Assembly: GCA_037917675.1 (NCBI GenBank)
Contig: JAVCBW010000007.1
Coordinates: 1-20,137 of the forward strand
Source: Thermoproteota archaeon
GTDB lineage: Archaea; Korarchaeota; Korarchaeia; B14-G2
Length of the DNA stretch: 20,137 nucleotides
Reading direction: 5' to 3'
The position numbers and the translations under genes are program-made. Under the pieces are notes generated by a model that saw nothing but the letters and a program-made list of their open reading frames with translations, did no database searches and was not told the origin of the DNA. Below are positions 1,605 through 19,298 of the stretch, piece by piece. Each line of letters begins with the position of its first letter. The first letter of the stretch is position 1.

Positions 1605-1623
1605 ATGCTCTGGTAGATTGCTG

Positions 1624-1630
1624 TTTTTAA
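1624..1630. promoter_or_regulatory. Putative bidirectional TATA box
   Basis: TTTTTAA is the main AT tract in the 47-nt gap between divergent genes, centred about 25 nt from both GTG 1652 (+) and ATG 1604/1601 (-). Confidence 0.55.
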
Positions 1631-1651
1631 GTTGCTGGTATGTGAGCTCTG

Positions 1652-3367
1652 GTGCCTTTGTTGGAGCATGCACTCAAGGTGCTTGGCGGTAGCTGGGGGT
1701 GGAGGTGCTTCTTCCTCGTGTTCTTTGTGTTTCTGGTGTCTTCTTCTCTGTTTGGTGCTGTTAGGAGGCTTGGTGATGCATCTAGCCACTGGATGATGTG
1801 TAGTAGCATGCTCTATGATAGGGATTTGGCCTATGATGTTGAGAGAGACCTTAGGAGGGCTCTTGAGCATAGGTTTGATGACCTTCCAGCAGGTATCTTC
1901 CTCTTGGAGAGGGGTGGGAGGTATGTTTATGCTAAGAGCCTCCACTATGCTGCTTTCTGTATGCCTTTCTTCCTCCTCTTTGGGAGTAGGGGCTTTCTGC
2001 TAGCTAACAGCCTGCTTTTCACTGGGACTGCTCTCCTAGCTGGGTCTGTTGTCTCTAGGCTACGTGGCGTGAGGAGGGAGCATGCTCTGCTCTTCACCTT
2101 AGTCTGCCTCCTCTTCTCTAACTTCTATGCTCTCATGTGGTGGATTGACCCCTTCGTCTTCCTTGGCTTCATGCTTGTCTTATCTTATTACCTGTGGTTT
2201 TCTGGTAGGAGAGCTGCTTCAGGCTTGGTTTTGGGCTTTGCTTCATCATATAGGTTTATTGAGGGGGCTCTGCTGCTTCCTCTCTTAGCATGGGATCTCT
2301 TGGATAGGAGGCTTAGGGATGCTGCCATGCTGGTTCTATCGTTTTCTTCAGCTTTCTCAGCTGTCCTGGCATTGAACTACATGGTTTTCGGCTCCTATAC
2401 CCCTTACTCTGCTGGGGGAATCTACTACCTGGCCTCTTTAGATGAGTGCTTTGACCCTTCTACTGGAGTCTTTGACAACTGTACGATTCCTCTCTTGCCT
2501 AGAGCTCTACCTGGCGTAAAGGTGGTAGCATATAACTTCCTCTACCTCTTTTTTGGGAGGAAGTCTGGTGTCTTCTTGTATAATCTTCCTGCTCTGCTTG
2601 CTTTCATGTCAGTAGCTAGGGGAGGGAGGGTTGAGAGATGTATAGTCTTGGTCTGTCTGCTAGACTTGCTTATGCTAGCTGTCCTCAGGCCTACACTGTA
2701 TCATGGTGGCTACCATACTATTGGGAACAGGTACTTCACCTTCTACCCTATTTTGCTGCTTGCAGTAGACTTGAGGAGGCTTGACAGGAGAGCTGTCTTA
2801 GCTGTTCTCGCTGCATCAGCTCTCCTAGCTGCTCCAGTGAACGCTAACCCTGTTATGAGCTCTCTTGAGTGGAGGAGGATAGGCTATAGCTACCCTTATA
2901 GGGCTTTCCCACTTGAGCTGACTACACTTGGACTAGACTACGACTTTAGTGGAGACGGCTTCGCTGTATACTATGCTGACTTGAATAGCTATAGAGCTGA
3001 GGAGAATGGCTTCTGGACTAGAGGTGGTAGCCAGGCTGTGTTTGTAGTGAGGTCTGTTAGGTGTGGGAAGCTCTATGTCTCTCTTACTAATGGGCTCTAT
3101 AGGAATGTGGTTGAGGTTTCTGTTGGAGGTGTGAGTAGGAGGGTTGAGTTAGAGAGCTTTGAGGGAGCTACACTGGAGTTTGATGTTGAGCCTGAGCTCA
3201 GGTATGTTAGCTACTGGATCTATGATAGGGTTAGTAGGCTAGTTGAAATCTACGTCTATACGGTGAGGGTTAGGTGTAGTAGTCTGTGGGTTCCAGCTTT
3301 GACTGGGCATGGATCTGACTCTAGGTGCCTTGGCGTCTATGTCCAGGTTTCTGTCGGAGGCTATTAG
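1652..3367 (+). CDS. GT-C-fold-like polytopic membrane glycosyltransferase with C-terminal soluble beta domain
   Basis: TM1 followed by an acidic loop 'LGDASSHWMMCSSMLYDRDL', roughly 10-12 hydrophobic segments, 'GGYHTIGNRYF' (GG..GxRY motif) and a C-terminal beta-rich domain ('NGFWTRG', 'DSRCLGV'). Confidence 0.7.
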   Translation: MPLLEHALKVLGGSWGWRCFFLVFFVFLVSSSLFGAVRRLGDASSHWMMCSSMLYDRDLAYDVERDLRRALEHRFDDLPAGIFLLERGGRYVYAKSLHYAAFCMPFFLLFGSRGFLLANSLLFTGTALLAGSVVSRLRGVRREHALLFTLVCLLFSNFYALMWWIDPFVFLGFMLVLSYYLWFSGRRAASGLVLGFASSYRFIEGALLLPLLAWDLLDRRLRDAAMLVLSFSSAFSAVLALNYMVFGSYTPYSAGGIYYLASLDECFDPSTGVFDNCTIPLLPRALPGVKVVAYNFLYLFFGRKSGVFLYNLPALLAFMSVARGGRVERCIVLVCLLDLLMLAVLRPTLYHGGYHTIGNRYFTFYPILLLAVDLRRLDRRAVLAVLAASALLAAPVNANPVMSSLEWRRIGYSYPYRAFPLELTTLGLDYDFSGDGFAVYYADLNSYRAEENGFWTRGGSQAVFVVRSVRCGKLYVSLTNGLYRNVVEVSVGGVSRRVELESFEGATLEFDVEPELRYVSYWIYDRVSRLVEIYVYTVRVRCSSLWVPALTGHGSDSRCLGVYVQVSVGGY

Positions 3368-5922: not shown

Positions 5923-7128
5923 ATGTCTTTGAGTGAGGCTGAAGTTGAGGAGCTGATGGCTGAGGTAAAGAGGAGGATGGAGGAGAGGAGGAAGAGGGAG
6001 GCTGAGGGCGGTGCTCTCCTGGAGGCAGCTGATGTCTGGGGGCCTCTTGACAAGCTGGTCTCTAGGAGGAGGCTTATAGGGCCTTTTGTGACCCTTAAGA
6101 GGCTTAGGAGGATCATGGGGTCACTTATCATGAGGCAGGTTGAGTTCAATAGGATGGCTGCTAGAGAGATCCTTAAGGCTGCTAGGGAGATCAGGGAGGT
6201 TAGGCAGGCTGCTACTGAAGCTGCTAAGAGGGTTGATGGTAGGCTATCAGAGGTCGATAGGAGGCTAGATGAGGTCAGGAGGAGGCTAGATGAGCTGAGT
6301 GGGGAGGTGCGTAGGGTGCTTGGTGTTCTTGAGGAGCTTTCAGGTAGGCTTGTGGTTGTTGAGGAGTGGAGGAGAGCTCTTTCAGAGGCAGCTTTGAAGG
6401 GTGAGGGTGGGGTTGGGGAGCTTAGGAGGCTTCTTGAGGGTGCTGCTCGCGGTGGGGGGAGCTTTGATATTGGTTGGAGGTTTAGGGGGAGCCTTGAGCA
6501 TGTGAGGAGGCATCAGTCTAGGTACTTGAGGTACTTTGAGGGGAGGAGTAACGTTGTTGACTTGGGCTGTGGGAGGGGGGAGTTCCTGGAGCTTCTAGCA
6601 GAGAGGGGGGTTGACTGCTATGGTGTTGAGGCAGACTTAGACATGTATCTTTACTGTAGGGGTAGGGGGCTTAAGGTTGTCTATGGGGATGCGATAGAGC
6701 ACTTGAGAGGGCTTAGTGATGAGAGCCTTGGTGGGGTGTTTCTCTCACATGTCGCTGAGCACCTTGAGCCTAGTGTTCTCCTTGAGCTGATCAGCTTATG
6801 CTATAGGAAGCTTAAGTCTGGCTGCTATCTTGTGGTTGAGTCTCCTAACCCAGCTTCACTCTATGCGATGGCTAAGCACTTCTATAGGGACTATACGCAT
6901 GTGAAGCCTATCCACCCTGATGCTATGGCTTTGATGCTTGAGAAAGCTGGTTTCCAGGATGTTGAGGTCCAGTATGTCTCTGAGGTCCCTGAGGGGGAGA
7001 GGCTTAAGCTCCTTGATGCCCTGGGGCTCCCTATGGAGGCTGCTGAAGCTCTGAATGAGAACTTCATGAAGCTTAACTCTATTGTCTTCGCTCCACAGGA
7101 CTATGCTGTAGTTGGGAGGAAGCCTTGA
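5923..7128 (+). CDS. Coiled-coil plus class I SAM methyltransferase; putative glycan chain-terminating (WbdD/WsaE-like) enzyme
   Basis: Basic amphipathic segment 'SRRRLIGPFVTLKRLRRIMG..RQVEFN', a heptad region of about 89 aa, then 'FRGS..RY', 'VVDLGCGRGEFL', 'SHVAEHL', 'ESPNP', 'DYTHVKPIHP' and 'QDYAVVGRK'. Start set at ATG 5923 by TATA spacing. Confidence 0.85.
   Translation: MSLSEAEVEELMAEVKRRMEERRKREAEGGALLEAADVWGPLDKLVSRRRLIGPFVTLKRLRRIMGSLIMRQVEFNRMAAREILKAAREIREVRQAATEAAKRVDGRLSEVDRRLDEVRRRLDELSGEVRRVLGVLEELSGRLVVVEEWRRALSEAALKGEGGVGELRRLLEGAARGGGSFDIGWRFRGSLEHVRRHQSRYLRYFEGRSNVVDLGCGRGEFLELLAERGVDCYGVEADLDMYLYCRGRGLKVVYGDAIEHLRGLSDESLGGVFLSHVAEHLEPSVLLELISLCYRKLKSGCYLVVESPNPASLYAMAKHFYRDYTHVKPIHPDAMALMLEKAGFQDVEVQYVSEVPEGERLKLLDALGLPMEAAEALNENFMKLNSIVFAPQDYAVVGRKP
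6241..6303 (+). repeat. 3 x 21-bp imperfect tandem repeat encoding coiled-coil heptads
   Basis: aggctatcagaggtcgatagg / aggctagatgaggtcaggagg / aggctagatgagctgagtggg = RLSEVDR / RLDEVRR / RLDELSG. Confidence 0.8.
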
Positions 7129-9401
7129 GCCACTATGATAGGATTGCTGTACTCATGCCTACTCAGCCTACTCCAGTTAGGGGTGGGGCTGAGAGGCTTA
7201 CTGAGAGCATAGTGAGGAAGCTTAGAGAGAGGGGGTATTCAGCTGACCTCATTAGGGTTGAGGTTGATGAGAGGAGGTGGGAGACTCTACTCGAGGGCTA
7301 CTGTAAGTTCTTCTACCTGGACTTAGATAGCTATGACCTGGTGATATCTACTAAGGCTCCATCTTACATGGTGAGGCATAGGAACCATGTCTCCTACCTA
7401 TATCATACTGTCAGGGTCTTCTATGACATGTTTCATGAGATCTCTTATGATAGGGAGAGCTATAGGAGGAGGGACATAGTACACTCACTTGACAAGTATG
7501 GGCTTAGCCCAAGGAGGGTTAGGAGGCACTTCGTTCTTGGGAGCCAGGTTGTTAAGAGGCTTATTGAAGCTGACAGCTACTGGCGTAGCATACCCTTTGA
7601 GGTCCTGCATCCTCCTTCTCCACTTGAGGGCTTTAGGGAGGGAGACTACAAGTATGTGTTCATAGCTGGGAGGCTTCATAGATGGAAGCGTATAGACCTT
7701 GTTGCTAGGGCTATGAGGCATGTCAAGGGTGATGTCCAGCTCCTCATTGCAGGAGATGGAGAGGATAGGGCTGCTATAGAGGAGGTGGCCTCTAGGGATA
7801 GGAGGATAGAGCTTTTAGGTGAGGTTAGTGACGAGGAGCTCCTAGAGCTCTATGCTAACGCCCTGGTTGTCCCATTCACACCTAAGTGGGAGGACTTTGG
7901 CCTGGTCACAGTAGAGGCTTTCATGAGCAGGAAGCCTGTGATAACATGTATAGACTCAGGTGAGCCTACAGTCCTCGTCAGAGATGGGTTCAGCGGCTTT
8001 GTCTCTCCTCCGAAGCCTAGGGAGATAGCTAGGAGGATAAGGTACTTCCTCAAGTGGCCTGATGAAGCTAGGAGGATGGGTAGGAATGGGTATATGACTG
8101 CTAGGAAGATAACCTGGGATAGGCTGATAAGCAGGCTTCTCGGGCTAGAGTACACTCAGCATGAGGAGAGGGGGGTTAATGTCCTCGTTACAGACAACCA
8201 GGTCTTAGATCCTCCAGTTGGGGGAGGTAGGCTCAGGATATATGACCTGTTTAGGAGCATGCCACCTGGCTTTAACGTGACCTATGTGGGTGCATTCGAC
8301 TGGCTTGGGCCAGGGTTCAGAGACCAGAAGCTCGGTGATAGGCTTAGAGAGATATGTGTCCCTATGACTGTCCCTCATATAGCAGTCGACTCTCTCATCA
8401 GCAAGGCTTGTGGAGGAGAGGTTACACTAGACGTCACTACACCATTCCTGATGAGGCTTACTCCACTCTTCAAGAGGGTTCTGAGATACTATGCTGACGT
8501 CTGTGATGTTATAGTTTGTAGCCACCCCTGGGTGTATCCTTACATCGAGAGGAGAGGGAAGCCTCTGATATATGATGCTCATAACTGTGAGTACTATATT
8601 AAGAGAGAGATCCTTGGCAGGAGTCTCCTCGGTAAGCTGCTTGCTTGGCTTGTTAGGAGGATTGAGAAGAAGCTCTGCCAGGAGTGTGATGCCATACTTG
8701 TGTGCTCAGAGGAGGATGCAGAGCTCTTCCAGAAGGCCTATGGGGTCAGTAGAGAGAAGATACATGTCATACCGAATAGCGTTAGGACTGACGTCGTAAA
8801 GCTGACGCCGCTTAGCAGAGATGAGGCTAAGAGGGATCTTGGGCTCTCAGGCAGCATAGTGCTCTTTGTCGGCAGCCCTTATGGCCCGAATATAGAGGCA
8901 GCTAAGTTCATATGTGAGAGGCTTGCTCCAGAGATGGAGGACTGTACCTTCCTGGTTGTCGGAGGGATCTCTGAGAGGCATGTGGGAGGGAAGCCAGGTA
9001 ACGTCAGGTTCACTGGTATAGTAGGCTTCAGTAGGCTCATGAGGATCTATGAGGCATCTGATGTAGCTGTCAACCCGGTCTTCAGGGGCTCTGGGTCTAA
9101 TGTGAAGATGTTCTGGTATATGGCAGCAGGAGTCCCTGTTGTCACAACTAAGGTTGGTGCTAGAGGGATTAGAGGAGAGAACATGAAGCACTTTATAGTC
9201 TGTGAGCCAGAGGAGTTCCCTAGGTACATTAGGCTACTGCTCACTGATAAGAGGCTCTATGCTAGGATTAGGCAGGAGGCTAGGAGGCTTGTTGAGGAGG
9301 CTTATGATAGTAGGGTGGTAGCTAGGAGGCTAGGGGACATAGTGCTTAGGCTTCTGGGGGAGAGAGGTGAGGATACTAGTAGTGTCAACTTACTTGCCTG
9401 A
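7125..9401 (+). CDS. Tandem two-domain GT4 (GT-B) glycosyltransferase
   Basis: Domain 1: 'RGGAE', 'GRLHRWKRID', 'EDFGLVTVEA'. Domain 2 from about 8175: 'GGGRLR', 'YDAHNCE', 'FVGSPYGPNIEA', 'GSGSNVK..YMAAGVPVVTT'. TTG start overlaps the upstream TGA (TTGA). Confidence 0.92.
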   Translation: MSHYDRIAVLMPTQPTPVRGGAERLTESIVRKLRERGYSADLIRVEVDERRWETLLEGYCKFFYLDLDSYDLVISTKAPSYMVRHRNHVSYLYHTVRVFYDMFHEISYDRESYRRRDIVHSLDKYGLSPRRVRRHFVLGSQVVKRLIEADSYWRSIPFEVLHPPSPLEGFREGDYKYVFIAGRLHRWKRIDLVARAMRHVKGDVQLLIAGDGEDRAAIEEVASRDRRIELLGEVSDEELLELYANALVVPFTPKWEDFGLVTVEAFMSRKPVITCIDSGEPTVLVRDGFSGFVSPPKPREIARRIRYFLKWPDEARRMGRNGYMTARKITWDRLISRLLGLEYTQHEERGVNVLVTDNQVLDPPVGGGRLRIYDLFRSMPPGFNVTYVGAFDWLGPGFRDQKLGDRLREICVPMTVPHIAVDSLISKACGGEVTLDVTTPFLMRLTPLFKRVLRYYADVCDVIVCSHPWVYPYIERRGKPLIYDAHNCEYYIKREILGRSLLGKLLAWLVRRIEKKLCQECDAILVCSEEDAELFQKAYGVSREKIHVIPNSVRTDVVKLTPLSRDEAKRDLGLSGSIVLFVGSPYGPNIEAAKFICERLAPEMEDCTFLVVGGISERHVGGKPGNVRFTGIVGFSRLMRIYEASDVAVNPVFRGSGSNVKMFWYMAAGVPVVTTKVGARGIRGENMKHFIVCEPEEFPRYIRLLLTDKRLYARIRQEARRLVEEAYDSRVVARRLGDIVLRLLGERGEDTSSVNLLA

Positions 9402-10422
9402 GAGGTGTGGTATCGCTAGGTATGCGTGGCAGCTTGTTGAGCACCTCAGGAGCCAGGGGCATGTGGTCAACGTCTTGGCTCCACCTGGGTCGCTCTCAGA
9501 CTTCTGTGAGGACCTTAGGGGAGCTGGTGTCCTTAGGATACTCAAGTATGCTCCATTCTATGATAAGGTCATAGTAAACTTCCATGAGTCATTCTTCTAT
9601 AGGGGGGGTGTGCTTGGTAGGCTAATCACACACATCTCGCTTTCACTGCTCTTTCTAGCTGCTAGGAACATTGAGGTGATATGCCATGAGTACCTGAGGG
9701 CAGCTGGAGGCATCTTAGGTTGGGCTGATAGGCTGCTCTTGAAAGCTATGTGGCGTCTTGCTCCTAAGGTCGTCTTCCATACGAGGAGGGAGCTTGAGGA
9801 GTTTAGGAGGAGATATGGCGATGTGAACTCTGAGGTTAGGAGGCATGGTGAGGCCTTTAGGAAGATGGCTGAAGTCAGTAAGGCTGAGGCTAGGAGGAGG
9901 CTTGGCCTCAGTGAGGAGGACTTCATACTCTTGTGTATAGGTTTTATCCAGCCTCACAAGGGCTTTGACAGGGCTCTGAGAGCCTTCAGGTCTGTTGGTA
10001 GCAGTAGGGTTAAGCTCTATGTGGTTGGGTCTATCAGGCTGCTTGGAGGATGGACTCTCAGGTACCTGAGAGAGCTTAGAGAGCTTGCAGATAGCTGTGA
10101 GAGAGCATACCTGGTATATAGGTACTTGAGTGACGAGGAGTTTGACCTGTGGATTATAGCCTCAGATGTCGTAGTCTTGCCTTACCGTGAGATATGGTCT
10201 TCAGGTGTATTGGAGAGAGCTAAGCTTTATGGTAGGCCTGTTATAGCCTCTGATGTAGGAGGCTTGAGGGAGCAGCTTTCAGATGTAGACTACTGCTTTA
10301 AGAGCGACGAGGAGCTTGAGGAGGCTCTCAGAGTGCTCTCAGAGCTGGTGGATGAGGCTTCTGCAGCCTCCTCTAGGAGAGCTGAGAGCTCTGACGCAGT
10401 CTTCTCTAGCGTGAAGGAGTGA
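9367..10422 (+). CDS. GT4-family glycosyltransferase
   Basis: 'MRILVVSTYLPERCGIARY', 'GFIQPHKGFD', 'DVVVLPY..SSGVL..GRPVIASDVGG'. Confidence 0.9.
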   Translation: MRILVVSTYLPERCGIARYAWQLVEHLRSQGHVVNVLAPPGSLSDFCEDLRGAGVLRILKYAPFYDKVIVNFHESFFYRGGVLGRLITHISLSLLFLAARNIEVICHEYLRAAGGILGWADRLLLKAMWRLAPKVVFHTRRELEEFRRRYGDVNSEVRRHGEAFRKMAEVSKAEARRRLGLSEEDFILLCIGFIQPHKGFDRALRAFRSVGSSRVKLYVVGSIRLLGGWTLRYLRELRELADSCERAYLVYRYLSDEEFDLWIIASDVVVLPYREIWSSGVLERAKLYGRPVIASDVGGLREQLSDVDYCFKSDEELEEALRVLSELVDEASAASSRRAESSDAVFSSVKE

Positions 10423-11459
10423 GCTCTCAGGAGCCCGAGCCTACCCATCTCAGCAGCCTTCTCCCTAGACTTTAGGAGGGATATGGCTCTCCACGCGATT
10501 GCTGCTGGGCTCTTTGAGACCAGGTAGCCTGTCCTGCCATCTTCTACAAGCTCTCTCACCCCTCCCTCTCTTGATGCGACTACAGGCTTTGATGAAGCCA
10601 TGGCCTCGAGGACTGCTAGGCCAAAGGGCTCTCTGTGAGGCACGTATATTAGGCAGTAGGCTTCTGAGTAGGCTTCTATGAGAGCTCTCTCGTCTAGAGT
10701 AGTGATCCTGACAGAGGCTTCTAGGCCTAGAGCTCTTATGAGGCTTATCAGCCTGCTCCTCTCAGGGCCTTCTCCTACTATGAGCAGCCTGGCTTCTGGG
10801 ATCCTCTTCGCTATCAGCTTCATGGACTCTATGACTAGGTGGATGTTCTTGTGGTAGATGAGCCTCGACACAGATAGTAGCAGCGGCGACTCTGGCTCTC
10901 TAGGCTTGTATGCGCTCAGCTTGACACCAGGATAGACTACCATGCTATCTCTACCATAGGCGAGCCTTATGTACTGTCTTGTGAACTTGGAGTTTGAGGC
11001 TATGGCATCGACTCTCAGAGCCTTTGCCCTGTCATAGGCTCTTAGAGCAGAGAGCACTATGCGTGACATGGGTGATGGGAGCCTAGACCTCGCAGCATAC
11101 TCTCTTGATAGGTCATAGAGCTCTCTTGGAGGCTCATGGCAGTACCATACTGAGGGGTGTAGTGAGATCAGGTATGATGGGAAGCTATGGAGGTTATAGA
11201 CTTGGTGCTCTCTGATAGCAGCCTGGAGTGCTGTGGCAGCAAGAGGGTAGAAGGGGAGCTTCATCATCTTCTTGGCTAAAGGGACCTCTACGACTTGAGG
11301 TAGCTTCAGGAAGCTCCACTTCCCGCTGCTGAACCTTGACGTGTATACTGTCACATGGTGGCTTCTAGAGAGAGCTTCTGCAAGCTGTAGTGTAAGCTTC
11401 TGTGCACCACCATATGCTGAGAGGTCTGGGTGGACTATAGCTACGTCTAGGCTAGCCAA
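10290..11459 (-). CDS. GT4-family glycosyltransferase (Alg2/WbaZ-like)
   Basis: 'VAIVHPDL..YGGAQ', 'WYCHEPPR.LYD', 'SNSKFT', 'VSRL..HKN', 'EPFGLAVLEAMA'. TTG at 11459 with GAGGAG upstream overlaps the wzm stop. Confidence 0.92.
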   Translation of the reverse strand: MASLDVAIVHPDLSAYGGAQKLTLQLAEALSRSHHVTVYTSRFSSGKWSFLKLPQVVEVPLAKKMMKLPFYPLAATALQAAIREHQVYNLHSFPSYLISLHPSVWYCHEPPRELYDLSREYAARSRLPSPMSRIVLSALRAYDRAKALRVDAIASNSKFTRQYIRLAYGRDSMVVYPGVKLSAYKPREPESPLLLSVSRLIYHKNIHLVIESMKLIAKRIPEARLLIVGEGPERSRLISLIRALGLEASVRITTLDERALIEAYSEAYCLIYVPHREPFGLAVLEAMASSKPVVASREGGVRELVEDGRTGYLVSKSPAAIAWRAISLLKSREKAAEMGRLGLLRAHSFTLEKTASELSALLEEAAEASSTSSESTLRASSSSSSLLKQ

Positions 11460-12207
11460 TGTAGTATCTCTCCTCTCTAAGCTTGAATACAGCATAGCCT
11501 GCCATCAGGGAGGCTGCTATAGCTGCCAGAACATAGGCTAAGCTTGAGGCTGGTGGAGGAGACGCCTCTAGGACAGCTGACCTAGCCATGGATAGCAGGT
11601 GTGTGTATGGGTTTATCATGACTATCCTCTTGAGAGGTGGAGAGACGCTTTCTAGCGGGTATACTACTGGGACTGAGAAGAACAGTAGGTTTAGGTATAT
11701 GTCTGTGAGGTAGCCTATGTCATCGTATTCAGCATAGAGTGAAGCTAGCACCATTGCTATGCCTAGAGTGAATAGGTGGGTCAGTATGAGTACTGGGAGT
11801 ATCAGGGTGCTCTCTAAGCTCAGCCTTATGCCTAGTAGAGCTACGCCTACTAGGAGGAGGGCTGCTAGGTCTCCTATGCTGTGGAATAGGGAGGAGAGGG
11901 CGTTTCCAATAGGTATTGAGAGCATGTGTATCGGTGTGGAGTTTATCAGAGCTCTCTGCTGCCTTATTGAGCTCATGACCTGAGTTGTGCAGTGAGCTAT
12001 TGTCCTCCAGACTGTCAAGCCTACTAGCAGGTATGCTCCATACTCTCTCAGGTTGAGGTTTAGTATGGCTGAGAAGACTAGCGCGAAGACAGCTAGCAGC
12101 CCTAGTGGGTGTATGAAGCTCCATAGGAAGCCTAGTAGAGAGTTCCTGTACTCTACCTTGATGTTCTTCCATGCTATGATTATGCTCGTCTTCAGTACTT
12201 CGATCAA
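11452..12207 (-). CDS. wzm: Polysaccharide ABC transporter permease (Wzm/TagG-like)
   Basis: 'EYRNSLLGFLWSFIHPL', six TMs, 'FFSVPVVYP', 'INPYTHLL..AR'. TTG start directly abuts the wzt stop. Confidence 0.92.
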   Translation of the reverse strand: MIEVLKTSIIIAWKNIKVEYRNSLLGFLWSFIHPLGLLAVFALVFSAILNLNLREYGAYLLVGLTVWRTIAHCTTQVMSSIRQQRALINSTPIHMLSIPIGNALSSLFHSIGDLAALLLVGVALLGIRLSLESTLILPVLILTHLFTLGIAMVLASLYAEYDDIGYLTDIYLNLLFFSVPVVYPLESVSPPLKRIVMINPYTHLLSMARSAVLEASPPPASSLAYVLAAIAASLMAGYAVFKLREERYYIG

Positions 12208-13395
12208 CTATATCACCCTGTAGCTTACCTCAGTTTCAGCTAGCAGCATTCCATCTGATGTCTTGTCTGCAGGAGCTACTCTGAAGCCTAGGATGTTCTC
12301 TCTCCAGTCGAAGACCTCTCTGGAGTCAGGAGTGTGTGCTGCGACAGTGAGGTTGTAGAACCCAGAGTTTAGAGGGAGCTTCTGGGTGAAGTCTACTATT
12401 AGAGTGTCTCCAGCCTTCAGCTCTGGTAGCTTCACATTCTTCCTCCAGGTGTTCGTGCCATAGACTATGCTTCCAGATGGATCTGTTACCCTTATGCCTA
12501 CTACTGGGCTGCTCACCTCACTGTTTGCTCTACAGACTACTCTCACCATGAGCCTGCTTCCAGCCTTCACTGTAGTGAGCTCACTAAGGGAGGAGGCATC
12601 TAGGAGCTTTACCTCTAGGATCTCCATCTTCTGGGTAGGGGCCTCTACATGCTCCTGTGGCTTAGACTCCTCTGTGATCACTCCCCTATTCATGTATGCT
12701 ATTATATCACACATCTTCTCAGCGAGGCTCCTGTCGTGGGTTACTACCATGAAGGTCTTGCCCTCCTCTCTCTTCTCTAGGAGGAACTCTAGGGCTTTCT
12801 TCCTGAACTTCTCGTCACCGGGAGCTAGAGCCTCATCTATGAGGATGACTTCTGGGTCATGTATGAAGCTTCTGGCGAAGGCTAGCCTAGCTATCATCCC
12901 ACTAGACAGCTTCTTCACCTTTGTGTCAGCAAACTCCTCTAGCTCAGAGAACTCGAGTGCCCACTTTATCTTCTCTCTCCTCTCTCTCCTGCTGAAGCCC
13001 ATGTAGCGAGCATAGAAGTCTAGGTTCTCTTTTACAGTCAGCTCACTATAGAGGTTGGATCCTAGAGCTACTATCACAGCAATCCTCCTCTTGAGTGCCT
13101 CTATGTCTCTCAGAGGGTTGAGGCCTAGCACTCTGACATGTCCTCTTGTAGGTGGGAGTATCCCAGCTACCATCTTGAGCAGCGTGGTCTTCCCAGCTCC
13201 ATTAGGGCCCATCAGCCCATATGACATGCCTACTTCTATGGATAAGCTGACGTTGTTGACTGCTGTGATGACTCTCTGCCTATACTTGCCTGTCAGCATG
13301 TGGAGTAGCGTATGCCTGATGCTTCTCGATGCCTCAGGTGAGGCTATGGTGAACTCTCTGGTCAGGTTCCTAGCTTCTATCGCAAGCAAGTGCAT
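12208..13395 (-). CDS. wzt: Polysaccharide ABC transporter ATPase with C-terminal carbohydrate-binding module (Wzt_C)
   Basis: Walker A GPNGAGKTT, signature LSSGMIARLAF, Walker B ILIDEALAPGD and H-loop VTHD. The C-terminal domain of about 140 aa (12211-12627) has 'IVYGTNT', 'LPLNSGFYNLTVA', 'FDWRE..GFRV'. TTG 13398 is an alternative start. Confidence 0.93.
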   Translation of the reverse strand: MHLLAIEARNLTREFTIASPEASRSIRHTLLHMLTGKYRQRVITAVNNVSLSIEVGMSYGLMGPNGAGKTTLLKMVAGILPPTRGHVRVLGLNPLRDIEALKRRIAVIVALGSNLYSELTVKENLDFYARYMGFSRRERREKIKWALEFSELEEFADTKVKKLSSGMIARLAFARSFIHDPEVILIDEALAPGDEKFRKKALEFLLEKREEGKTFMVVTHDRSLAEKMCDIIAYMNRGVITEESKPQEHVEAPTQKMEILEVKLLDASSLSELTTVKAGSRLMVRVVCRANSEVSSPVVGIRVTDPSGSIVYGTNTWRKNVKLPELKAGDTLIVDFTQKLPLNSGFYNLTVAAHTPDSREVFDWRENILGFRVAPADKTSDGMLLAETEVSYRVI

Positions 13396-13415
13396 CAAGG
13401 TACTTGAGAGGTGGC

Positions 13416-13422
13416 AATTAAA
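13416..13422 (-). promoter_or_regulatory. Putative internal TATA box for wzt-wzm-GT4
   Basis: TTTAATT on the minus strand just after the GT2 stop, centred about 24 nt before ATG 13395. Confidence 0.45.
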
Positions 13423-13423
13423 G

Positions 13424-14329
13424 TTATTGAGCTAGAGGCCCTGTGCAGATGCTAGAGCTACATGAGGCTGAGGAGGCTTCCACGATGCTTGATGCCAGGG
13501 CTTGAGCTACACCTAGAAGCATTGATGCAGCAGCTATTATCAGAGCAGCTAGGTAGTAGGCTTTTGCAGATGCTTTAGGTAGCTGTGTAGGGAGGTAGTT
13601 CACTGCATTAGCCTTTGCATCCTCATATACTGTCCTAGCCCCCCAGTAGAGCAGCTTGAGGGGGGTGAGCTTCTTGAAGACGTCGCTGTGCCTCCTGAGT
13701 ATGCTGACTACCCCTCTCCCATGCCTGATCTGGCTTAAGACTAGCTCCCTCATCCTCCAGAACGGCTCGTGGACGACCTCTGCCTCCTTCACCTGCCTGA
13801 ACTTGTAGCCTGCCTTCATTACCCTCAGCTGGAAGTCCTTGTCTTCAGCTGCCTCTAGGCTCTCATCGAACAAGCCTACTTTGATGGCTGCCTCCTTTCT
13901 GAATGCCATGTTAGCTCCCCAGAACACCTCACCAAACAAGCTCTTCTTCTCAGTCTTCTGCCCAGCTATGTTCAGTACGGTGCCGCATACGACACCGACC
14001 TCTGGGTCTCTGAAGGGCTTACATAGTGAAGCTAGCCACCTGTCTGAGGCAGGGTAGCAGTCTGCATCCAGGACCACGATTATCTCGCCTCTAGCCTCTC
14101 TCACCCCGATGTTCACTGCCATAGACTTCTTTGGGGAGCTAGCTCTCAGCACGCGAGCCCCCTTAGAGCTAGCGATCTCAGGGGTACGGTCCCTTGAGCA
14201 GCTGTCGACTACTATCACCTCAAATGGCCACTTAGCCTGCTGGGATAGCACTAGGCTCAAGCACTTCCCTATGGTTCTCTGCTCGTCTCTCGCTGGTATG
14301 ACCACTGTCACCTTTGGAGCTAAGCTCAT
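13424..14329 (-). CDS. GT2-family (GT-A) glycosyltransferase with C-terminal membrane helix
   Basis: 'VTVVIPARDE', 'VIVVDSCSRD.T', DxD 'LDADC', 'GANMAFRK..VGLFDE..EDKD'. ATG 14329 is preceded by AGGTG. Confidence 0.93.
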   Translation of the reverse strand: MSLAPKVTVVIPARDEQRTIGKCLSLVLSQQAKWPFEVIVVDSCSRDRTPEIASSKGARVLRASSPKKSMAVNIGVREARGEIIVVLDADCYPASDRWLASLCKPFRDPEVGVVCGTVLNIAGQKTEKKSLFGEVFWGANMAFRKEAAIKVGLFDESLEAAEDKDFQLRVMKAGYKFRQVKEAEVVHEPFWRMRELVLSQIRHGRGVVSILRRHSDVFKKLTPLKLLYWGARTVYEDAKANAVNYLPTQLPKASAKAYYLAALIIAAASMLLGVAQALASSIVEASSASCSSSICTGPLAQ

Positions 14330-14362
14330 TAACACCTGCCACCATGGGGCTTAGGTAGCTGG

Positions 14363-14369
14363 TTATTAT
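14363..14369. promoter_or_regulatory. Putative TATA-like tract between divergent GT2 and GT4 genes
   Basis: TTATTAT within a 64-nt gap, ending 25 nt before TTG 14394. Confidence 0.45.
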
Positions 14370-14393
14370 GTATTGATGTAGCTGGTGTAGTGG

Positions 14394-15536
14394 TTGAGGG
14401 TTGCTATGGTGAATAGCTTTTACCCGCCATGGAGGGGTGGAGCTGAGACCTATGTGAGCAACCTAGCTAGGTGCCTAGTAGAGCTTGGTCATGATGTCAC
14501 TGTGTTCTGCTCTGAGGCTCCTCTGAGAGCTGGCGTCTACTCTGATGGGGAGGTATCTGTCTGGAGGATGGCTACAGCCTTCAGGGTATATGGGACGCCT
14601 GTCTTCCCAGAGCTAGCTTACAGGCTGCTGTCAGAGGACTACGACCTTGTACACGCTAACTTCCCAAGCCCATATGTGGCCTCATGCTCTTCTCTAAGCT
14701 CGCTGCTGAGGAGGAAGCCTGCTGTGCTGACCTGGCACAACGACCTGCCTCCAGTTGCCCCAGCAGCTAGGGGGATCATATCGGTGCACGATAAGCTGGC
14801 TGCACTCTACCTCAGGTCTTTCAGAGCTATAATAGCAACCACTAGGGTTTATGCATCCAAGTCTAGGGTGCTCAAGCTGCTCTCAGATAGGGTTCATGTG
14901 ATACCCTGTGGCGTCGACGTGTGTAGGTTTAGCCCCCTAGTGAGTGGCAGGAGGGTTAGAGACGAGATAGATGGAGCTGACTGGGTTGTCTTGTTTGTTG
15001 GAGCACTGACTAGGTGGCATGGGTATAAGGGGCTTGATGTCCTCTTGAAGGCTATGAGGGCTGTCAGGAGGGCTCTCAGCGGCGTCAGGCTTATTGTAGT
15101 GGGGGAGGGGGAGCTTAAGGGGTCCTATATGAGGCTTGCTGAGAGGGTTGGAGTCAGAGACATGGTTTACTTCGCTGGAGAGGTGAGTGATGAGAGGCTT
15201 CCAGAGTACTATGCTGCAGCAGACCTGCTAGCTATGCCTAGCAAAGACGACTCTGAGGGCTTTGGTATAGTGGCATTGGAGGCCAATGCGTGTGGGAAGC
15301 CTGTGGTGGCATGTAGGGTCGGTGGAGTGGTTGAAGTCGTTAGAGACGGTGTGAATGGCATTCTGGTTGAGCCTAATAGCCCTAGTGAGCTCGCCTCAGC
15401 TATAGTTCACCTGCTGACTAGAGAAGACCTTAGAGAGGAGCTTGGGAGGAGAGGTAGGGCTATAGCTGAGATGTATGACTGGAAGCGTATAGCATCGATG
15501 GTCTCAGAGCTCTATGCTAGGGTAGCTGACAGGTGA
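14394..15536 (+). CDS. GT4-family glycosyltransferase (PimA/RfaB-like)
   Basis: 'FYPPWRGGAE', 'LFVGAL..YKGLD', 'EGFGIVALEANACGKPVV', 'YDWKRIA'. Confidence 0.94.
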   Translation: MRVAMVNSFYPPWRGGAETYVSNLARCLVELGHDVTVFCSEAPLRAGVYSDGEVSVWRMATAFRVYGTPVFPELAYRLLSEDYDLVHANFPSPYVASCSSLSSLLRRKPAVLTWHNDLPPVAPAARGIISVHDKLAALYLRSFRAIIATTRVYASKSRVLKLLSDRVHVIPCGVDVCRFSPLVSGRRVRDEIDGADWVVLFVGALTRWHGYKGLDVLLKAMRAVRRALSGVRLIVVGEGELKGSYMRLAERVGVRDMVYFAGEVSDERLPEYYAAADLLAMPSKDDSEGFGIVALEANACGKPVVACRVGGVVEVVRDGVNGILVEPNSPSELASAIVHLLTREDLREELGRRGRAIAEMYDWKRIASMVSELYARVADR

Positions 15537-15541
15537 GGTAG

Positions 15542-16555
15542 GTGAGGGTTCTGGTCGTCGGAGACAGCTCATCTCCGTTTGTTAGGCAGGATTATAGGCT
15601 GCTGTCTGAGCTGGCCAGCGTGAGCTTGCTGTCAGCTAGAGGGTACCTAGGGTATCTTGCTAAGCTCCCTGAGGCTAGAGGCTATGACGTCTACTATGCG
15701 TGGTGGGCTAGTAGCTTACATAGCATCCTCTACTCTAAGCTGTATGGTGGAGCATCAGTTGTGGTTGCTGGAGGCTTCGACGTCGTCTCTGAGGATAGTG
15801 TGAGGTATGGGTATAGGTGGCAGCCTTGGTGGAGGAGGCAGGCTGTAAGGCAGTGCCTAAGGAGAGCTGACCTCATCTTAGCTGTCAGCAGGTTTGTTGA
15901 GGAACACGTTAAGAGGATAGATGCTAAAGCTAGGGTTGAAGTAGCTTATCTGGGAGTCGATGTGGAGAGGTTTGCTCCAGTAGGCCTCAAGCAGAGGAGG
16001 CCAGTTGTCTTAACTGTAGCTCACTTGACTCCTAGGAGCATAGTGTATAAGGGGGTTATGGACTTGCTTGAGGCATTCGCTTACGTTGCTAGGAGGAAGC
16101 CTGAAGCTAGGCTCTGCATCGCTGGAGCACACCTAGGTGGGGAGGCTGCTGTAGCTAAGAGAGCTAGAGAGCTGGGTTTAGATAGCAGAGTTAAGCTCAT
16201 AGGGGAGGTAGATCATGATAGGATCCACATGCTCTATCAGCAGGCTATGGTCTATGCTCAGCTTAGCAGAGTTGAGAGCTTTGGGCTATGTGTAGCTGAA
16301 GCTATGGCATGTGGGACTCCTGTCGTGGTATCTGGTGTAGGAGGGCTTCGTGAGGTAGCTGGGAATGTGGGAGCTACTGTCAAGGTGGAGAAGCCTAGGG
16401 AGGCTGCTGACATCATATGTAATCTACTAGAGGATAGAGAGCAGTGGCGTAAGATGAGTGAGCTGGGGAGGCTTAGAGTGCTGAGCATGTTCACGCTAGC
16501 TCATAGGAGGAAGAGGCTAGCTCAAGCTTTAAGCTGCATCACTCAGCTCAGCTAG
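15542..16555 (+). CDS. GT4-family glycosyltransferase
   Basis: 'AGGFDV', 'ILAVSRF', 'YKGV', 'ESFGLCVAEAMACGTPVVVS'. GAGGT precedes the GTG start. Confidence 0.92.
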   Translation: MRVLVVGDSSSPFVRQDYRLLSELASVSLLSARGYLGYLAKLPEARGYDVYYAWWASSLHSILYSKLYGGASVVVAGGFDVVSEDSVRYGYRWQPWWRRQAVRQCLRRADLILAVSRFVEEHVKRIDAKARVEVAYLGVDVERFAPVGLKQRRPVVLTVAHLTPRSIVYKGVMDLLEAFAYVARRKPEARLCIAGAHLGGEAAVAKRARELGLDSRVKLIGEVDHDRIHMLYQQAMVYAQLSRVESFGLCVAEAMACGTPVVVSGVGGLREVAGNVGATVKVEKPREAADIICNLLEDREQWRKMSELGRLRVLSMFTLAHRRKRLAQALSCITQLS

Positions 16556-17336
16556 GCTGCTGTGCTCTCTGCCTAGCCTTCCTATGCCAGTAGGCTGCTA
16601 GCAGAGCTCTAGCAGTAAGCATCCATGCTGGGATAGCTGTGAGTAGGGCAATGTACCTTGCTGCTAGCCCTATGGTAGAGCACTCAAGCCTACCTGCAAT
16701 GTACACTGGGTATAGGGCTATTTTAGCGAGGGCTTCAGCTAGCTTTGTGTAGCTTGCTCTCGGCACCCTCACCTCAACGCCATTCAGCTTCTTCTCAGCT
16801 AGTGGAGCAAAAGTGATCAGCGTAAGCAGCAGTAACGCCATGGATGCTAGTGGAGCTACTGTAGACCCTAGCTTACCCTCTGGCATCAGCTTATAGGCTG
16901 CAATGGAGAGTGAGATGTGAGCTAGCAGCAGAGGGAGAATCCAGGGAGAGGAGGGGAGCTGCAGAAAGATGTATGACCCAATCTCCTTTACTACTGGATT
17001 GGGTAGCTTCATTAGGTAAGCTGATGCAGCTAGCAGCATTGAGGATACGGTGATGAATGCTATGAAACTCGGCTTCAGCCTCCTGTCTGCTGGCAGGAGA
17101 GCTGCATAGGCTGTAGCTAAGGGGAGGGCGAAGGTATATACTACAGCTTGGAAGGACATCCCGAGCATGAGCCTCCCAATCTTCACATAGGATGGCATGT
17201 AGAAGACGTTTAGGCTTACTCTACCTCGAGTGAAGCCTGTCCTCCCAGCTGAGGTGTAGAGTAGCCCTACTGAGTAGAGTATGATCCCTATGAGGCTCAG
17301 GATAGCTATTGAGGTAGGTAGGTAGCTGGCTCTCAT
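16548..17336 (-). CDS. Hypothetical polytopic membrane protein (about 6 TM)
   Basis: Multiple hydrophobic segments. ATGA start/stop overlap with the upstream gene at 17336-17333. No recognisable motif. Confidence 0.65.
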   Translation of the reverse strand: MRASYLPTSIAILSLIGIILYSVGLLYTSAGRTGFTRGRVSLNVFYMPSYVKIGRLMLGMSFQAVVYTFALPLATAYAALLPADRRLKPSFIAFITVSSMLLAASAYLMKLPNPVVKEIGSYIFLQLPSSPWILPLLLAHISLSIAAYKLMPEGKLGSTVAPLASMALLLLTLITFAPLAEKKLNGVEVRVPRASYTKLAEALAKIALYPVYIAGRLECSTIGLAARYIALLTAIPAWMLTARALLAAYWHRKARQRAQQPS

Positions 17337-18892
17337 CCACCACACCTCATGTAGACTGAGGCCTCTCCGGTGTCGACGACCTTCGATAGGCCTTGAGCTA
17401 GTAGCAGGTAGTCTACTCCTCTCTCAGTGACTATAGCTGCAGCCTCCTTCCCCATGGCCTCTGGAAGCATCTTCACGTCGCTGTACTGTGAGCTAGGCTC
17501 TAGCATAGCTTCAGCTAGAGGAGCTAGCTTATCTGGATAGAGTACTGGAGCTCTTGAGAGGCTTCTAGCATAGTCTACTGCCTCAAGGAGGCTTGCTGGG
17601 TAGGCTGGCGTCACACCAGTGAGCATCAGGTAGAATCCAAGAGCCATTGAAGCTGAGACAGCTAAAGCTGAGGCCATGGCTGCAGCAGTACTCTTCTTCG
17701 AGAGGTCTCCTAGGAGGCATCCTATAGCTATGCTCAGCAGTACTCCGAGTGTTATCGTGAACCTTGGAGCTGTGATAGCTGTGTCTATGCCTGATAGAGC
17801 TAGCAGTAAGCTTGCTAGAGAGAGCATTAGGAGGTGGCGTGATGCAGTAGACTTCTTCCTTACAAGGCTTAAGAGAGCTACAGCTCCTAGGGACCACTGG
17901 ATTATCCCCCAGCATACTGCTGAACCCATTGTAGCTGAGAGCTCATATATGCTGCCAGCTCCACGAGCATACTGCACCACATAGCTGAGGACAGCAGAGC
18001 GTAGGGTGCTGTCTATAGCTAGGGCAGCTGCAGGCAGCATGGAGGCAGCTAGCATCATCAGGTTATGCTTTGCCTCACCTCGCTTTCCTGAGGTAAGCAT
18101 GTATGCTGCCATACCAGCTAGGTAGACCTGTGTTATAGCTAGGGTCATCTCATGAGAGGAGAGGAGAGCTAGCCCTGCTACTACATAGAGGAGAGGCCTT
18201 GCATGAGGCTTAGCTCTGCTAGCTAGCTTGAGCAATGTCGGTGTTGAGAGCAGTAGAGGGAGGCTGAGAAGCTGCCTCAGGTAGCCCCAGCTTAGAAATA
18301 TCCATGTGCTAGATGAGACTATGAGAGCTGCAGCTATTGGAGCTGCCTCTACGCCTGAGGCCTCTCTAGTGAGGTCGTATACTATGGGGATTACTAGAGC
18401 ACATGCTAGCGTAGGGAGTAGGATGTAGAAGCTATGTGGGCTGACACCTAGGATGGAGAAAAGCCTGCTTACAGATGTTATGGCTATCAGCGTCGGGAAG
18501 ACTCCTTTGCTCCAGTGTGAAAGCTCAGCCATGTATATGTATGGGTCTAAGCCCAAGATGACTCCATATCGCCTGAAAGGTATCAGGCAGTATGCTATGC
18601 CAGCTATGCATGTAGCTGAGAGGAGGAGCAGATCTCTTGTGTGAGCCTCGATTTCCATGCGGCTAGCGAGAAGCAAGGCTAGAGCAGACTCGATCAGGCA
18701 AGCTGCGAGCACGAGCTCTGCGCTCCCAGCTGCGTAGGCTGCCAGGGCAGCTAGGTACATGTGGCATACCCCTAGAGCTATGGTTTCGCTGATGAGCTTC
18801 GGTAGGTCTGCTCTCCCTGGAGCAAGCAGCTCTCTGAGAAGCATCCCAGGCAGCACTATGGTTACAGCTACAGCTGCTATGAGCCTAGGCAT
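17333..18892 (-). CDS. GT-C/STT3-like polytopic membrane protein lacking WWDxG
   Basis: Many TM segments (about 13-15 by eye), 'GLDPYIY' acidic loop motif, 'WGYLRQ', 'SH', 'PRF', and a short C-terminal soluble domain starting 'SLLEAVDYAR'. ATG 18892 is preceded by AGGTG. Confidence 0.65.
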   Translation of the reverse strand: MPRLIAAVAVTIVLPGMLLRELLAPGRADLPKLISETIALGVCHMYLAALAAYAAGSAELVLAACLIESALALLLASRMEIEAHTRDLLLLSATCIAGIAYCLIPFRRYGVILGLDPYIYMAELSHWSKGVFPTLIAITSVSRLFSILGVSPHSFYILLPTLACALVIPIVYDLTREASGVEAAPIAAALIVSSSTWIFLSWGYLRQLLSLPLLLSTPTLLKLASRAKPHARPLLYVVAGLALLSSHEMTLAITQVYLAGMAAYMLTSGKRGEAKHNLMMLAASMLPAAALAIDSTLRSAVLSYVVQYARGAGSIYELSATMGSAVCWGIIQWSLGAVALLSLVRKKSTASRHLLMLSLASLLLALSGIDTAITAPRFTITLGVLLSIAIGCLLGDLSKKSTAAAMASALAVSASMALGFYLMLTGVTPAYPASLLEAVDYARSLSRAPVLYPDKLAPLAEAMLEPSSQYSDVKMLPEAMGKEAAAIVTERGVDYLLLAQGLSKVVDTGEASVYMRCGG

Positions 18893-19298
18893 CAGAGGCA
18901 CCTGCTAGGTATATCAGGCAGCTCCTGTATGGTGATGGGCTACCAGAGGTGTAGAGCGTTACAGAGATCTTAGAGGGAGCGTCCTCTGGGAGCCTGACTT
19001 CCAGCTTAGCTCTATCCCCATCTGGGATAGATAGGCTTGCCTTATAGAAGACTAGAGGCCTACCAGGAGTTAAGCCGCTCACTACTAGAGTATAGTTTAG
19101 CAGCCTCCCCTCTCTATTTGATACCTCGATGGTGAGCCTAGTAGACTTCCCTTGTGGAGTCTTAGATGTATGGATAGCTGAGACAGCTAGGGTAGTGTAT
19201 CCCTCACTTCTCCACTCTGCATTCCATAGCATAGCTATGGATAGTAGAGCTGTGTAGGCTGCTAGCAGAGCAGCTTTCCTATAGCCTACAGGTGACAT
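18885..19298 (-). CDS. DUF1616-like membrane-anchored beta-sandwich protein
   Basis: One TM, then 'YTTL', 'IEVSNREG...NYTLVV', 'KISVTLY', 'PYRS.LIYL', matching the remembered pattern of the archaeal DUF1616 C-terminal domain. Confidence 0.65.
   Translation of the reverse strand: MSPVGYRKAALLAAYTALLSIAMLWNAEWRSEGYTTLAVSAIHTSKTPQGKSTRLTIEVSNREGRLLNYTLVVSGLTPGRPLVFYKASLSIPDGDRAKLEVRLPEDAPSKISVTLYTSGSPSPYRSCLIYLAGASDA

Follow-up and report, generated by a model that had tools for sequence, protein, structure and literature searches.

A coiled-coil methyltransferase and a Wzm/Wzt transporter in a predicted polysaccharide capping and export cluster on a contig binned with an archaeal genome

The window analysed here was the whole of contig JAVCBW010000007.1 (20,137 bp), which was binned with the genome assembly of an uncultured archaeon from sediment (1.78 Mb in 62 contigs), estimated to be 92.7% complete and 1.9% contaminated. 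Positions 5923-14335 were filled by two convergent, tightly packed operons. The part at 5923-13398 encoded a coiled-coil methyltransferase, a glycosyltransferase with two GT4 modules, two single GT4 enzymes, and the permease (Wzm) and ATPase (Wzt) of an ATP-binding cassette (ABC) transporter, the latter with a Wzt_C domain. A first-pass annotation, made by reading the sequence, had described at 5923-13395 a gene run converging on a GT4-wzm-wzt operon whose Wzt carries a carbohydrate-binding module (CBM), and this arrangement was borne out by the open reading frames (ORFs) and their Pfam domains. The locus proved to be larger than that interval: a GT2 gene (13424-14335) and two GT4 genes (14394-16555) are collinear with it in the genome of a sister species. 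The genes and features of the locus are listed below, with lengths in amino acids (aa) and with dN/dS, the ratio of non-synonymous to synonymous substitution rates, measured against the sister species.

5923..7128, plus strand: coiled-coil methyltransferase, predicted chain terminator and ruler, 401 aa (Methyltransf_23/MetW)
6049..6120, plus strand: basic and hydrophobic N-terminal segment, aa 43-66, region of the G53/Q72 motif, predicted docking end
6082..6450, plus strand: coiled-coil spacer, aa 54-176 (AlphaFold2 helix and heptad register)
6460..7125, plus strand: class I S-adenosylmethionine (SAM) methyltransferase domain, aa 180-401 (Foldseek match to 3DLI; invariant motifs)
7125..9401, plus strand: two-module GT4, 758 aa, predicted polymerase (Pfam)
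9367..10422, plus strand: GT4, 351 aa (Glycos_transf_1, 51.9 bits; dN/dS 0.17)
10290..11495, minus strand: GT4, 401 aa, last gene of the wzt-wzm operon (Glycos_transf_1, 131 bits; dN/dS 0.23)
11452..12207, minus strand: Wzm, ABC-2 permease, 251 aa (ABC2_membrane, 68.7 bits)
12208..13398, minus strand: Wzt, ABC ATPase with a C-terminal carbohydrate-binding domain, 396 aa, ATG at 13395 (ABC_tran and Wzt_C)
12211..12636, minus strand: Wzt_C beta-sandwich domain, aa 255-396 (PF14524, 94.5-97.4 bits)
13424..14335, minus strand: GT2, 303 aa, first gene of the wzt operon (Glycos_transf_2, 91 bits; C-terminal transmembrane-like segment at 262-280)
14394..15536, plus strand: GT4, 380 aa (Glycos_transf_1, 148 bits; collinear in the sister genome; dN/dS 0.16)
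15542..16555, plus strand: GT4, 337 aa (Glycos_transf_1, 110 bits; collinear in the sister genome; dN/dS 0.15)

The start and stop codons of the methyltransferase and two-module GT4 genes overlap in the tetranucleotide TTGA (7125-7128), the two-module GT4 gene overlaps that of the 351-aa GT4 by 35 nt (9367-9401), the TTG start of wzm abuts the TAG stop of wzt, and the genes for Wzm and the 401-aa GT4 overlap by 44 nt. Because of these junctions, the earlier wording of a translationally coupled run is a fair description. The methyltransferase ORF may begin at 5899 (409 aa); gene callers choose the ATG at 5923 (401 aa). The two GT4 genes that converge here (9367-10422 on the plus strand and 10290-11495 on the minus strand) share 133 nt of their 3' ends at 10290-10422, where both strands code for Ser/Ala/Glu-rich tails, and the final 26 residues of the minus-strand enzyme did not align with the sister species.

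The methyltransferase matched Methyltransf_23 in Pfam (54.4 bits, residues 207-356). An AlphaFold2 model built from an alignment of 33 sequences (predicted local distance difference test, pLDDT, 85.2) contained a single helix of 106 residues (54-159), a second helix of 16 residues (161-176) and a class I methyltransferase fold at residues 180-401. Residues 54-176 followed one heptad register, with hydrophobic side chains at 76% of the a and 83% of the d positions. An alpha-helix rises by about 0.15 nm per residue, a value that gives the predicted coil a length of roughly 16-18 nm. Residues 43-66, which precede and enter the coil, are basic and hydrophobic with a net charge of +5 to +7 in 18-aa windows, and G53 and Q72 were nearly invariant across the 33 homologues. 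This segment is predicted to be the docking end of the protein, at the membrane or on a partner. Comparison with the sister species gave 63% identity over the coil with no insertions or deletions, against 90% for residues 1-53 and 87% for the methyltransferase domain. A coil constant in length and diverging in sequence, as seen here in one species pair, is what a spacer whose docking end is functional would be expected to show.

The catalytic domain carried the invariant D-x-GCGRGEF, EH and E-x-x-NP motifs. The nearest solved structure, both by sequence and by Foldseek, was that of a SAM methyltransferase from A. fulgidus (PDB id. 3DLI), with an E-value of 2e-63, 47% identity and a TM-score of 0.89. 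No WbdD chain in the PDB matched the protein at E <= 0.01, and no kinase family was found in it by the Pfam and NCBIfam scans, so it is not a WbdD of the O9a type. The family comprised at least 996 homologues at E <= 1e-3 among the 8,000 scored, and many of these bear the name 'O-antigen chain-terminating methyltransferase' in one source. An N-terminal extension of at least 120 aa was present in 116 of the 120 homologues listed (median 205, range 23-340), and a C-terminal extension of at least 100 aa in none of them. Family members at five bacterial loci (L056, L074, L095, L080 and L091) lie inside ORFs of 683-963 aa, which suggests fusions of a coil-methyltransferase unit with further domains.

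The relation of this enzyme to a known chain terminator was examined using the O-antigen region of E. coli IAI1, which served as the reference for E. coli O8; RefSeq labels its wzt and wzm 'O8 family'. The gene order read from the record was manC-rfbK-wzm-wzt-class I methyltransferase (425 aa)-glycosyltransferase (1213 aa)-GT4-wbdC. The 425-aa ORF was taken as WbdD(O8) by its position, and is named a class I SAM-dependent methyltransferase in the record. Residues 186-326 of the window methyltransferase aligned with residues 12-158 of the O8 methyltransferase at 39% identity over 147 aa (E 7e-28), which groups it with a glycan terminator and not with non-glycan enzymes, and the O8 enzyme matched a hidden Markov model of the family methyltransferase domain with 153.6 bits over residues 3-216. 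The window catalytic domain is thus of the O8-terminator type, and the order of the enzyme and its coil is inverted.

The Wzt protein gave Pfam matches of 101 bits to ABC_tran and 94.5 bits to Wzt_C at residues 255-383 (cut-off 30.4). Its model, built from an alignment of 34 sequences (pLDDT 89.5), contained an all-beta segment at 258-395, and the top 7 Foldseek matches listed were full-length WzmWzt chains from Aquifex aeolicus, aligned over 381-417 columns at E ~1e-36. When the C-terminal 146 residues were searched alone, the A. aeolicus carbohydrate-binding domain (CBD) was returned at E ~4e-10 (8DKY and 6O14, the latter at 4.5e-10), followed by the O12-type CBD 5HNO at E 0.028 and the O9a CBD 2R5O at E 0.38. 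The proposal that this C-terminal domain is a CBM is therefore upheld by the Pfam score, the 6O14/8DKY matches and the full-length Aquifex superposition. Window Wzt and O8 Wzt were 30% identical over 359 aa covering both domains (E 4e-51). The nucleotide-binding domain gave NCBIfam scores of 166 bits to DrrA, 153 to NodI, 125 to TagH and 113 to Wzt/RfbE. A chimera of a DrrA-like nucleotide-binding domain with Wzt_C was considered and rejected, as both domains align with the O8 and Aquifex Wzt proteins. The best NCBIfam match of the adjoining wzm product was the galactan export permease Wzm/RfbD, and at least 5 hydrophobic segments were found in it.

The 758-aa glycosyltransferase gave Pfam matches to Glyco_trans_1_4 (132 bits) and Glycos_transf_1 (117.5 bits) in two stretches each, with Glyco_transf_4 at 444-556, which indicates two GT4 modules. 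The search for relatives returned 313 matches at E <= 1e-3; the 120 listed were all at E <= 8e-175 with 40-48% identity, and the family members were about 767 aa long, or about 1035 aa where a GT2 was added. The protein resembles WbdA in layout only, and is an analogue of the O8 polymerase and not an orthologue. The best match among named genomes was in Methanothrix (E 9e-221). Close relatives (E <= 1e-100) followed the methyltransferase in 5 of 80 related loci, 4 of them archaeal, and in loci of Methanothrix, Methanoperedens, Methanoregula and Paenibacillus the methyltransferase gene was immediately followed by that of the two-module GT4. A predicted complex of the two-module GT4 with residues 1-185 of the methyltransferase scored 0.56; one control reached 0.52.

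The related loci were collected by scanning one genome per species, which gave 507 methyltransferase relatives, of which the best 80 loci were kept and their neighbouring genes identified with phmmer on six-frame ORFs. By record title, 73 loci were bacterial and 7 archaeal, from Methanothrix, Methanoperedens, two Methanoregula, Methanoregulaceae, Methanomicrobiales and a Methanobacteriota metagenome-assembled genome (MAG). Of these loci, 30 contained Wzm, 36 an ABC ATPase and 27 a Wzt_C-like domain, numbers that are lower bounds because several of the loci span less than 10 kb. Among the 36 loci with an ATPase there were 23 in which its gene lay on the methyltransferase strand and ended at most 350 nt ahead of the methyltransferase, and the order wzm-wzt-methyltransferase-glycosyltransferase recurred in bacterial and archaeal relatives alike. 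All 7 archaeal loci carried a Wzt_C-like ATPase, which is split in L029; L037 is a 2.9-kb contig with no room for wzm. Pfam confirmed Wzt_C at 92-108 bits in the 4 of 4 loci examined (45 of 52 ORFs, seven edge ORFs being omitted). The expected co-occurrence of the methyltransferase with wzm/wzt was thus found in 30-36 of the 80 loci and in 7 of 7 archaeal ones.

Within the phylum of the host, Wzt_C was confined to this genus, with 2 positive genomes among 40 in the class and 2 among 43 in the phylum. Above the cut-off it was present in 55 of 401 sampled genomes of the phylum of Methanothrix, so archaeal Wzt-CBM systems are not rare in genomes, and among 14 control genomes Methanosarcina acetivorans was positive. 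The cassette is notable and is not unique among archaea, given the similar ones in methanogens. Beside wzm-wzt-methyltransferase, the cassettes of Methanoperedens (L022:8357-9289) and Methanoregula (L023:4072-6275) have genes of the GDP-mannose 4,6-dehydratase type (449 bits in L023) and of the reductase type, and these point to a possible 6-deoxyhexose polymer in the two lineages, reminiscent of the common polysaccharide antigen (CPA) of P. aeruginosa. In the Methanothrix locus (L019:2184-5431) a methyltransferase and a B12-binding radical SAM gene come right after wzt.

Two trees of the methyltransferase were computed. In a FastTree of 77 full-length rows, from which four loci with ORFs shorter than 330 aa had been dropped, the presence of wzm/wzt required 2 changes, and 0 of 500 shuffles were as low. 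The window sequence was placed weakly (87) with Actinomycetota. In an IQ-TREE of the methyltransferase domain alone it stood at the base of a wzt-linked clade holding the methanogen group, with support of 86/90. The trees name no donor for the module. The methyltransferase of L034, a 3,148-bp contig of a 'Marinimicrobia' MAG, fell inside the methanogen clade beside a Methanomicrobiales MAG with support of 98-100, and that contig may be misbinned.

The maintenance of the cluster was examined by composition and by comparison with a MAG of the same genus held under a separate record. The correlation of the tetranucleotide profile of the window with the rest of the genome was 0.97 (rank 74-96 of 170 chunks), and that of the 7.5-kb core was 0.953; pieces of 7.5 kb taken at random had a median of 0.966 and a 5th percentile of 0.888. 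An 11,086-bp contig of the same-genus MAG was collinear with window positions 6485-17544 and shared 76% of nucleotides with them; two 6-kb regions picked at random from the genome gave 73-84% against the same MAG. All 9 genes compared with the sister species were under purifying selection, with dN/dS of 0.13-0.33. The statement that the module does not look recently acquired holds on the tetranucleotide fit, the retention of the cluster in the sister species and these dN/dS values. In a metagenome scan for the contig the sister contig was the only match. The data sets listed as containing the 7.5-kb stretch included no RNA set and two DNA sets from sediment metagenomes, which may be the sources. 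The locus is a real and maintained one for ABC-transporter-dependent glycan assembly.

Other steps of such a pathway were sought in the rest of the genome and of the window. Two initiating transferases of PF00953 were encoded on one contig (C60) and one STT3/AglB on another (C57). Below the NCBIfam cut-offs the GT2 resembled MftF/AglJ, and the GT4 and GT2 enzymes gave weak Agl16/AglJ matches. Two polytopic membrane proteins flank the cluster, and each is given as a lead only.

17333..18901, minus strand: orphan polytopic membrane protein, 522 aa, possible GT-C-like post-export enzyme (at least about 10 hydrophobic segments)
1652..3367, plus strand: polytopic membrane protein, 571 aa, possible GT-C-like glycosyltransferase (nine hydrophobic segments, beta-rich C-terminal part)

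In language-model features the nearest Atlas clusters of the 522-aa protein were PMT_2/DUF6541/DUF2206-like at 0.97-0.98, and among 1.84 billion representatives no sequence relative was found except itself and a fragment from the sister genome. The 571-aa protein had a weak LA_3751/3752 putative glycosyltransferase match and GT87/PMT/Glyco_transf_22-like clusters as its nearest at 0.97-0.99. The Methanothrix and Methanoperedens cassettes, too, have PMT_2-type proteins at their flanks. The start of the 522-aa protein gene is overlapped by an ORF of 137 aa that matches DUF1616 weakly. At 4046-5754 on the minus strand, adjacent genes of 412 and 164 aa encode similar N-termini, a hydrophobic segment followed by a helical charged stretch, and the 412-aa protein contains another six hydrophobic segments and weakly matches an ArsG-family permease. 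A radical SAM gene (516-1673, minus strand) and a small methyltransferase gene (3321-4028, minus strand) lie upstream of the cluster and may encode sugar-modifying enzymes.

The reading that we prefer, to which a probability of about 0.6 is assigned, is that the cluster makes a lipid-linked polysaccharide, methyl-caps it at a length set by a ruler and exports the capped chains through Wzm/Wzt. One of the two PF00953 transferases that the genome encodes on another contig would start synthesis on dolichyl phosphate. The single GT4 enzymes would build an adaptor, on which the two-module GT4 would polymerise the chain in the cytoplasm. With its N-terminal segment at the membrane or on the polymerase, the methyltransferase would hold its C-terminal catalytic domain at the distal end, mirroring WbdD, and the non-reducing end would likely be methylated once the chain spans the coil of roughly 16-18 nm. 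Wzt_C would then read the methyl cap, so that probably only capped chains are exported. Once exported, the polymer may be transferred to an acceptor by AglB or by the contig's own GT-C-like membrane proteins, or it may stay lipid-anchored. Of the length-controlled, O-methyl-capped polymer on a lipid carrier that the first-pass annotation had proposed, the gene content and homologies argue in favour; the methyl cap, the chain length and the lipid carrier we infer from them.

Several results weigh against this reading. No hydrophobic segment was found in the methyltransferase, and hence the membrane-proximal position of its N-terminus is likewise something that we infer. Its domain order is, to our knowledge, opposite to that of every characterised terminator, and it formed a long, unresolved branch in both methyltransferase trees. 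The two-module GT4 aligned with the 1213-aa O8 glycosyltransferase at 25% over 143 aa (E 1e-5), which is generic GT4 similarity. No sugar-nucleotide gene and no initiating transferase were found in the window, and neither a Wzy_C ligase nor a true gmd above cut-off in the genome. The confinement of Wzt_C to one genus of the phylum implies that the module entered the lineage by horizontal transfer at some point. In 44 of the 80 related loci no ABC ATPase was found in the available DNA, some of these being only 3-10 kb long, and a 33-row clade of Vicinamibacterales/Aminicenantes in the FastTree was without wzm/wzt within the available DNA, so the methyltransferase family is not tied exclusively to ABC export. 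The last point would suit a cluster in which Wzm/Wzt still export a glycan while the methyltransferase is neither terminator nor ruler and decorates internal residues or another substrate, with the coil serving oligomerisation or scaffolding only and chain length set by export kinetics or by another enzyme. We regard such a cluster as unlikely. The second methyltransferase (3321-4028) and the radical SAM gene on the contig are compatible with it, as is the precedent of PA5457 and PA5459, which the available part of PMC3560663 describes as not being length regulators of the WbdD type. The same source describes these two enzymes as having no extra domains, whereas the window family almost always has a helical extension of 160-340 aa. 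Against internal decoration also stand the exact coil length in the face of a diverging sequence, the wzt gene directly upstream of the methyltransferase in 23 loci, and Wzt_C itself, which implies that a chain-end signal is read, as in the portions consulted of PMC3482155 and PMC11231755 for O8, O9a and O12.

The assignment of the contig to the archaeal genome was also examined. The rRNA genes of that genome were archaeal (small subunit 726 bits, large subunit 1140 bits, each the best in its clan). A search of the whole window gave no phylogenetic marker, no tRNA and no Rfam RNA. Among the flanking genes, the radical SAM protein had no match in the rest of the phylum at E <= 1e-20, relatives of the 522-aa protein in the phylum search were confined to its own genus, an AlkP-like fragment had one weak match in the phylum, and no flanking gene had a close paralogue elsewhere in the genome. 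With no marker on the contig, and with three flanking genes that lack relatives in the phylum or have them no farther away than the sister genus, it is binning that ties the contig to its host. A misbinned bacterial contig bearing an ordinary O-antigen or S-layer-glycan cluster would agree with these results, with the bacterial origin of 73 of the 80 family loci, with the Actinomycetota placement at 87 and with the 1.9% contamination estimate. It is nonetheless quite improbable: the tetranucleotide composition is mid-range for the genome, the collinear cluster of the sister MAG diverges by about as much (76% identity) as random regions do, and the top identities outside the genus were 48% for the polymerase, 44% for the methyltransferase and 33% for full-length Wzt, values that bacterial homologues do not exceed. 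The closest polymerase match in a named genome comes from Methanothrix, and the domain tree puts the window basal to the clade that holds the methanogens. The host is very probably the archaeon with which the contig was binned, and the archaeal origin assumed at first sight is supported by composition and the sister cluster; the marker search added nothing to it. In an archaeon the cluster could also build a short lipid-linked oligosaccharide for N-glycosylation by AglB, with Wzm/Wzt acting as a flippase and the methyl group as an ordinary decoration. Archaea are known to make methylated N-glycans, some Agl pathways include such a decoration, and the genome has AglB/STT3 and GPT-family initiators, no Wzy_C ligase, and GT4 and GT2 enzymes with below-cut-off Agl16/AglJ matches. 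The two-module GT4, the coil of 16-18 nm and Wzt_C are features of polymer pathways and not of Agl clusters, and the whole arrangement parallels the E. coli O8 cluster, which makes a short N-glycan a poor and very unlikely account of the locus.

Long archaeal surface polysaccharides are poorly understood, and the archaeal glycan pathways that have been described lead mainly to short Agl-type N-glycans. A full-text search judged by title and abstract, with subscription journals outside its coverage, returned no paper on archaeal Wzm/Wzt. The window and its relatives in Methanothrix, Methanoregula and Methanoperedens place the full logic of the bacterial pathway with an ABC transporter, that of polymerising, capping, checking the cap and exporting in archaeal genomes. 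A wider reading, offered tentatively and with more doubt than belief, is that archaea of several phyla use a cap-and-ruler ABC pathway around an inverted WbdD with a basic N-terminal anchor and a C-terminal methyltransferase, yielding a dolichol-linked methyl-capped polymer attached by AglB or by lineage-specific GT-C-like enzymes. If true, the long, length-controlled envelope polysaccharides of these archaea would form a class not yet described. A WbdD(O8) catalytic domain in the opposite domain order also offers a natural way of testing whether it matters to the ruler mechanism which coil end is the anchored one. The value of the window itself is limited because the organism is uncultured and its host assignment was made by binning; cultivated carriers exist (Paenibacillus allorhizoplanae and methanogens), so the question is directly testable.

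When the locus was compared with known systems, the best structural and sequence match to both domains of the window Wzt was A. aeolicus WzmWzt (7K2T, 8DKU and 8DNE; CBD 6O14), from which it differs in that the identity is only ~30%. The catalytic domain is closest to 3DLI, which is archaeal like the likely host; the solved chain differs in comprising the catalytic domain only (221-240 residues). It is a structural genomics entry of unknown function, for which we know of no functional data. In the CPA cluster of P. aeruginosa, too, WbdD(O8)-like methyltransferases (PA5457 and PA5459) are encoded together with Wzm/Wzt and GT4 enzymes, and the Gmd/Rmd-like genes carried by the methanogen relatives of the cassette recall the GDP-D-rhamnose pathway there, as far as these are set out in the available part of PMC3560663; the genome of the window differs in having no gmd above cut-off.

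A coiled-coil terminator is given as the hallmark of this strategy in the part of PMC11231755 consulted, with the terminator always at the distal end. In K. pneumoniae O12 WbbB and O7 ORF6 the terminating enzyme is likewise at the distal end of a coiled coil, according to the same part of that source, but there it is N-terminal with glycosyltransferase modules fused C-terminally, whereas in the window the terminator lies at the C-terminus and a separate, translationally coupled gene encodes the polymerase. The O9a WbdD is described in the accessible text of PMC3482155, with its architecture, as a trimer that recruits WbdA and acts as a ruler. The E. coli O9a/K. pneumoniae O3 system shares with the window a coiled-coil terminator, a two-module GT4 polymerase and, in the sections available, cap-dependent export through the Wzt CBM (PMC3482155, PMC11231755). 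It differs in the terminator: O9a WbdD contains a kinase domain, caps with methyl phosphate, and has N-terminal catalytic domains and a C-terminus that binds the membrane and WbdA.

The likeness to E. coli O8/K. pneumoniae O5, which make polymannose with a methyl cap only, extends to a homologous terminator catalytic domain and Wzt, a multi-module GT4 polymerase with single GT4s, a terminator of about 400-425 aa that has no kinase domain, and the order wzm-wzt-methyltransferase-glycosyltransferase common to the relatives of the window cassette. The parallel with wbdD-wbdA-wbdB drawn by the first-pass annotation is retained for gene order, as read from the O8 record, with the corrections that the polymerase is no WbdA orthologue and that the terminator domains are reversed. 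In O8 the methyltransferase is N-terminal (3-216) and the rest of the protein C-terminal, whereas in the window the coil occupies residues 54-176 and the methyltransferase 180-401. The polymerases are non-orthologous, the window operons are convergent while the O8 genes form one run, and the window has no manB/manC and a likely archaeal host with no lipid A-core acceptor or WaaL. Taken together, the locus most resembles the E. coli O8 type, with an inverted terminator and a non-orthologous polymerase.

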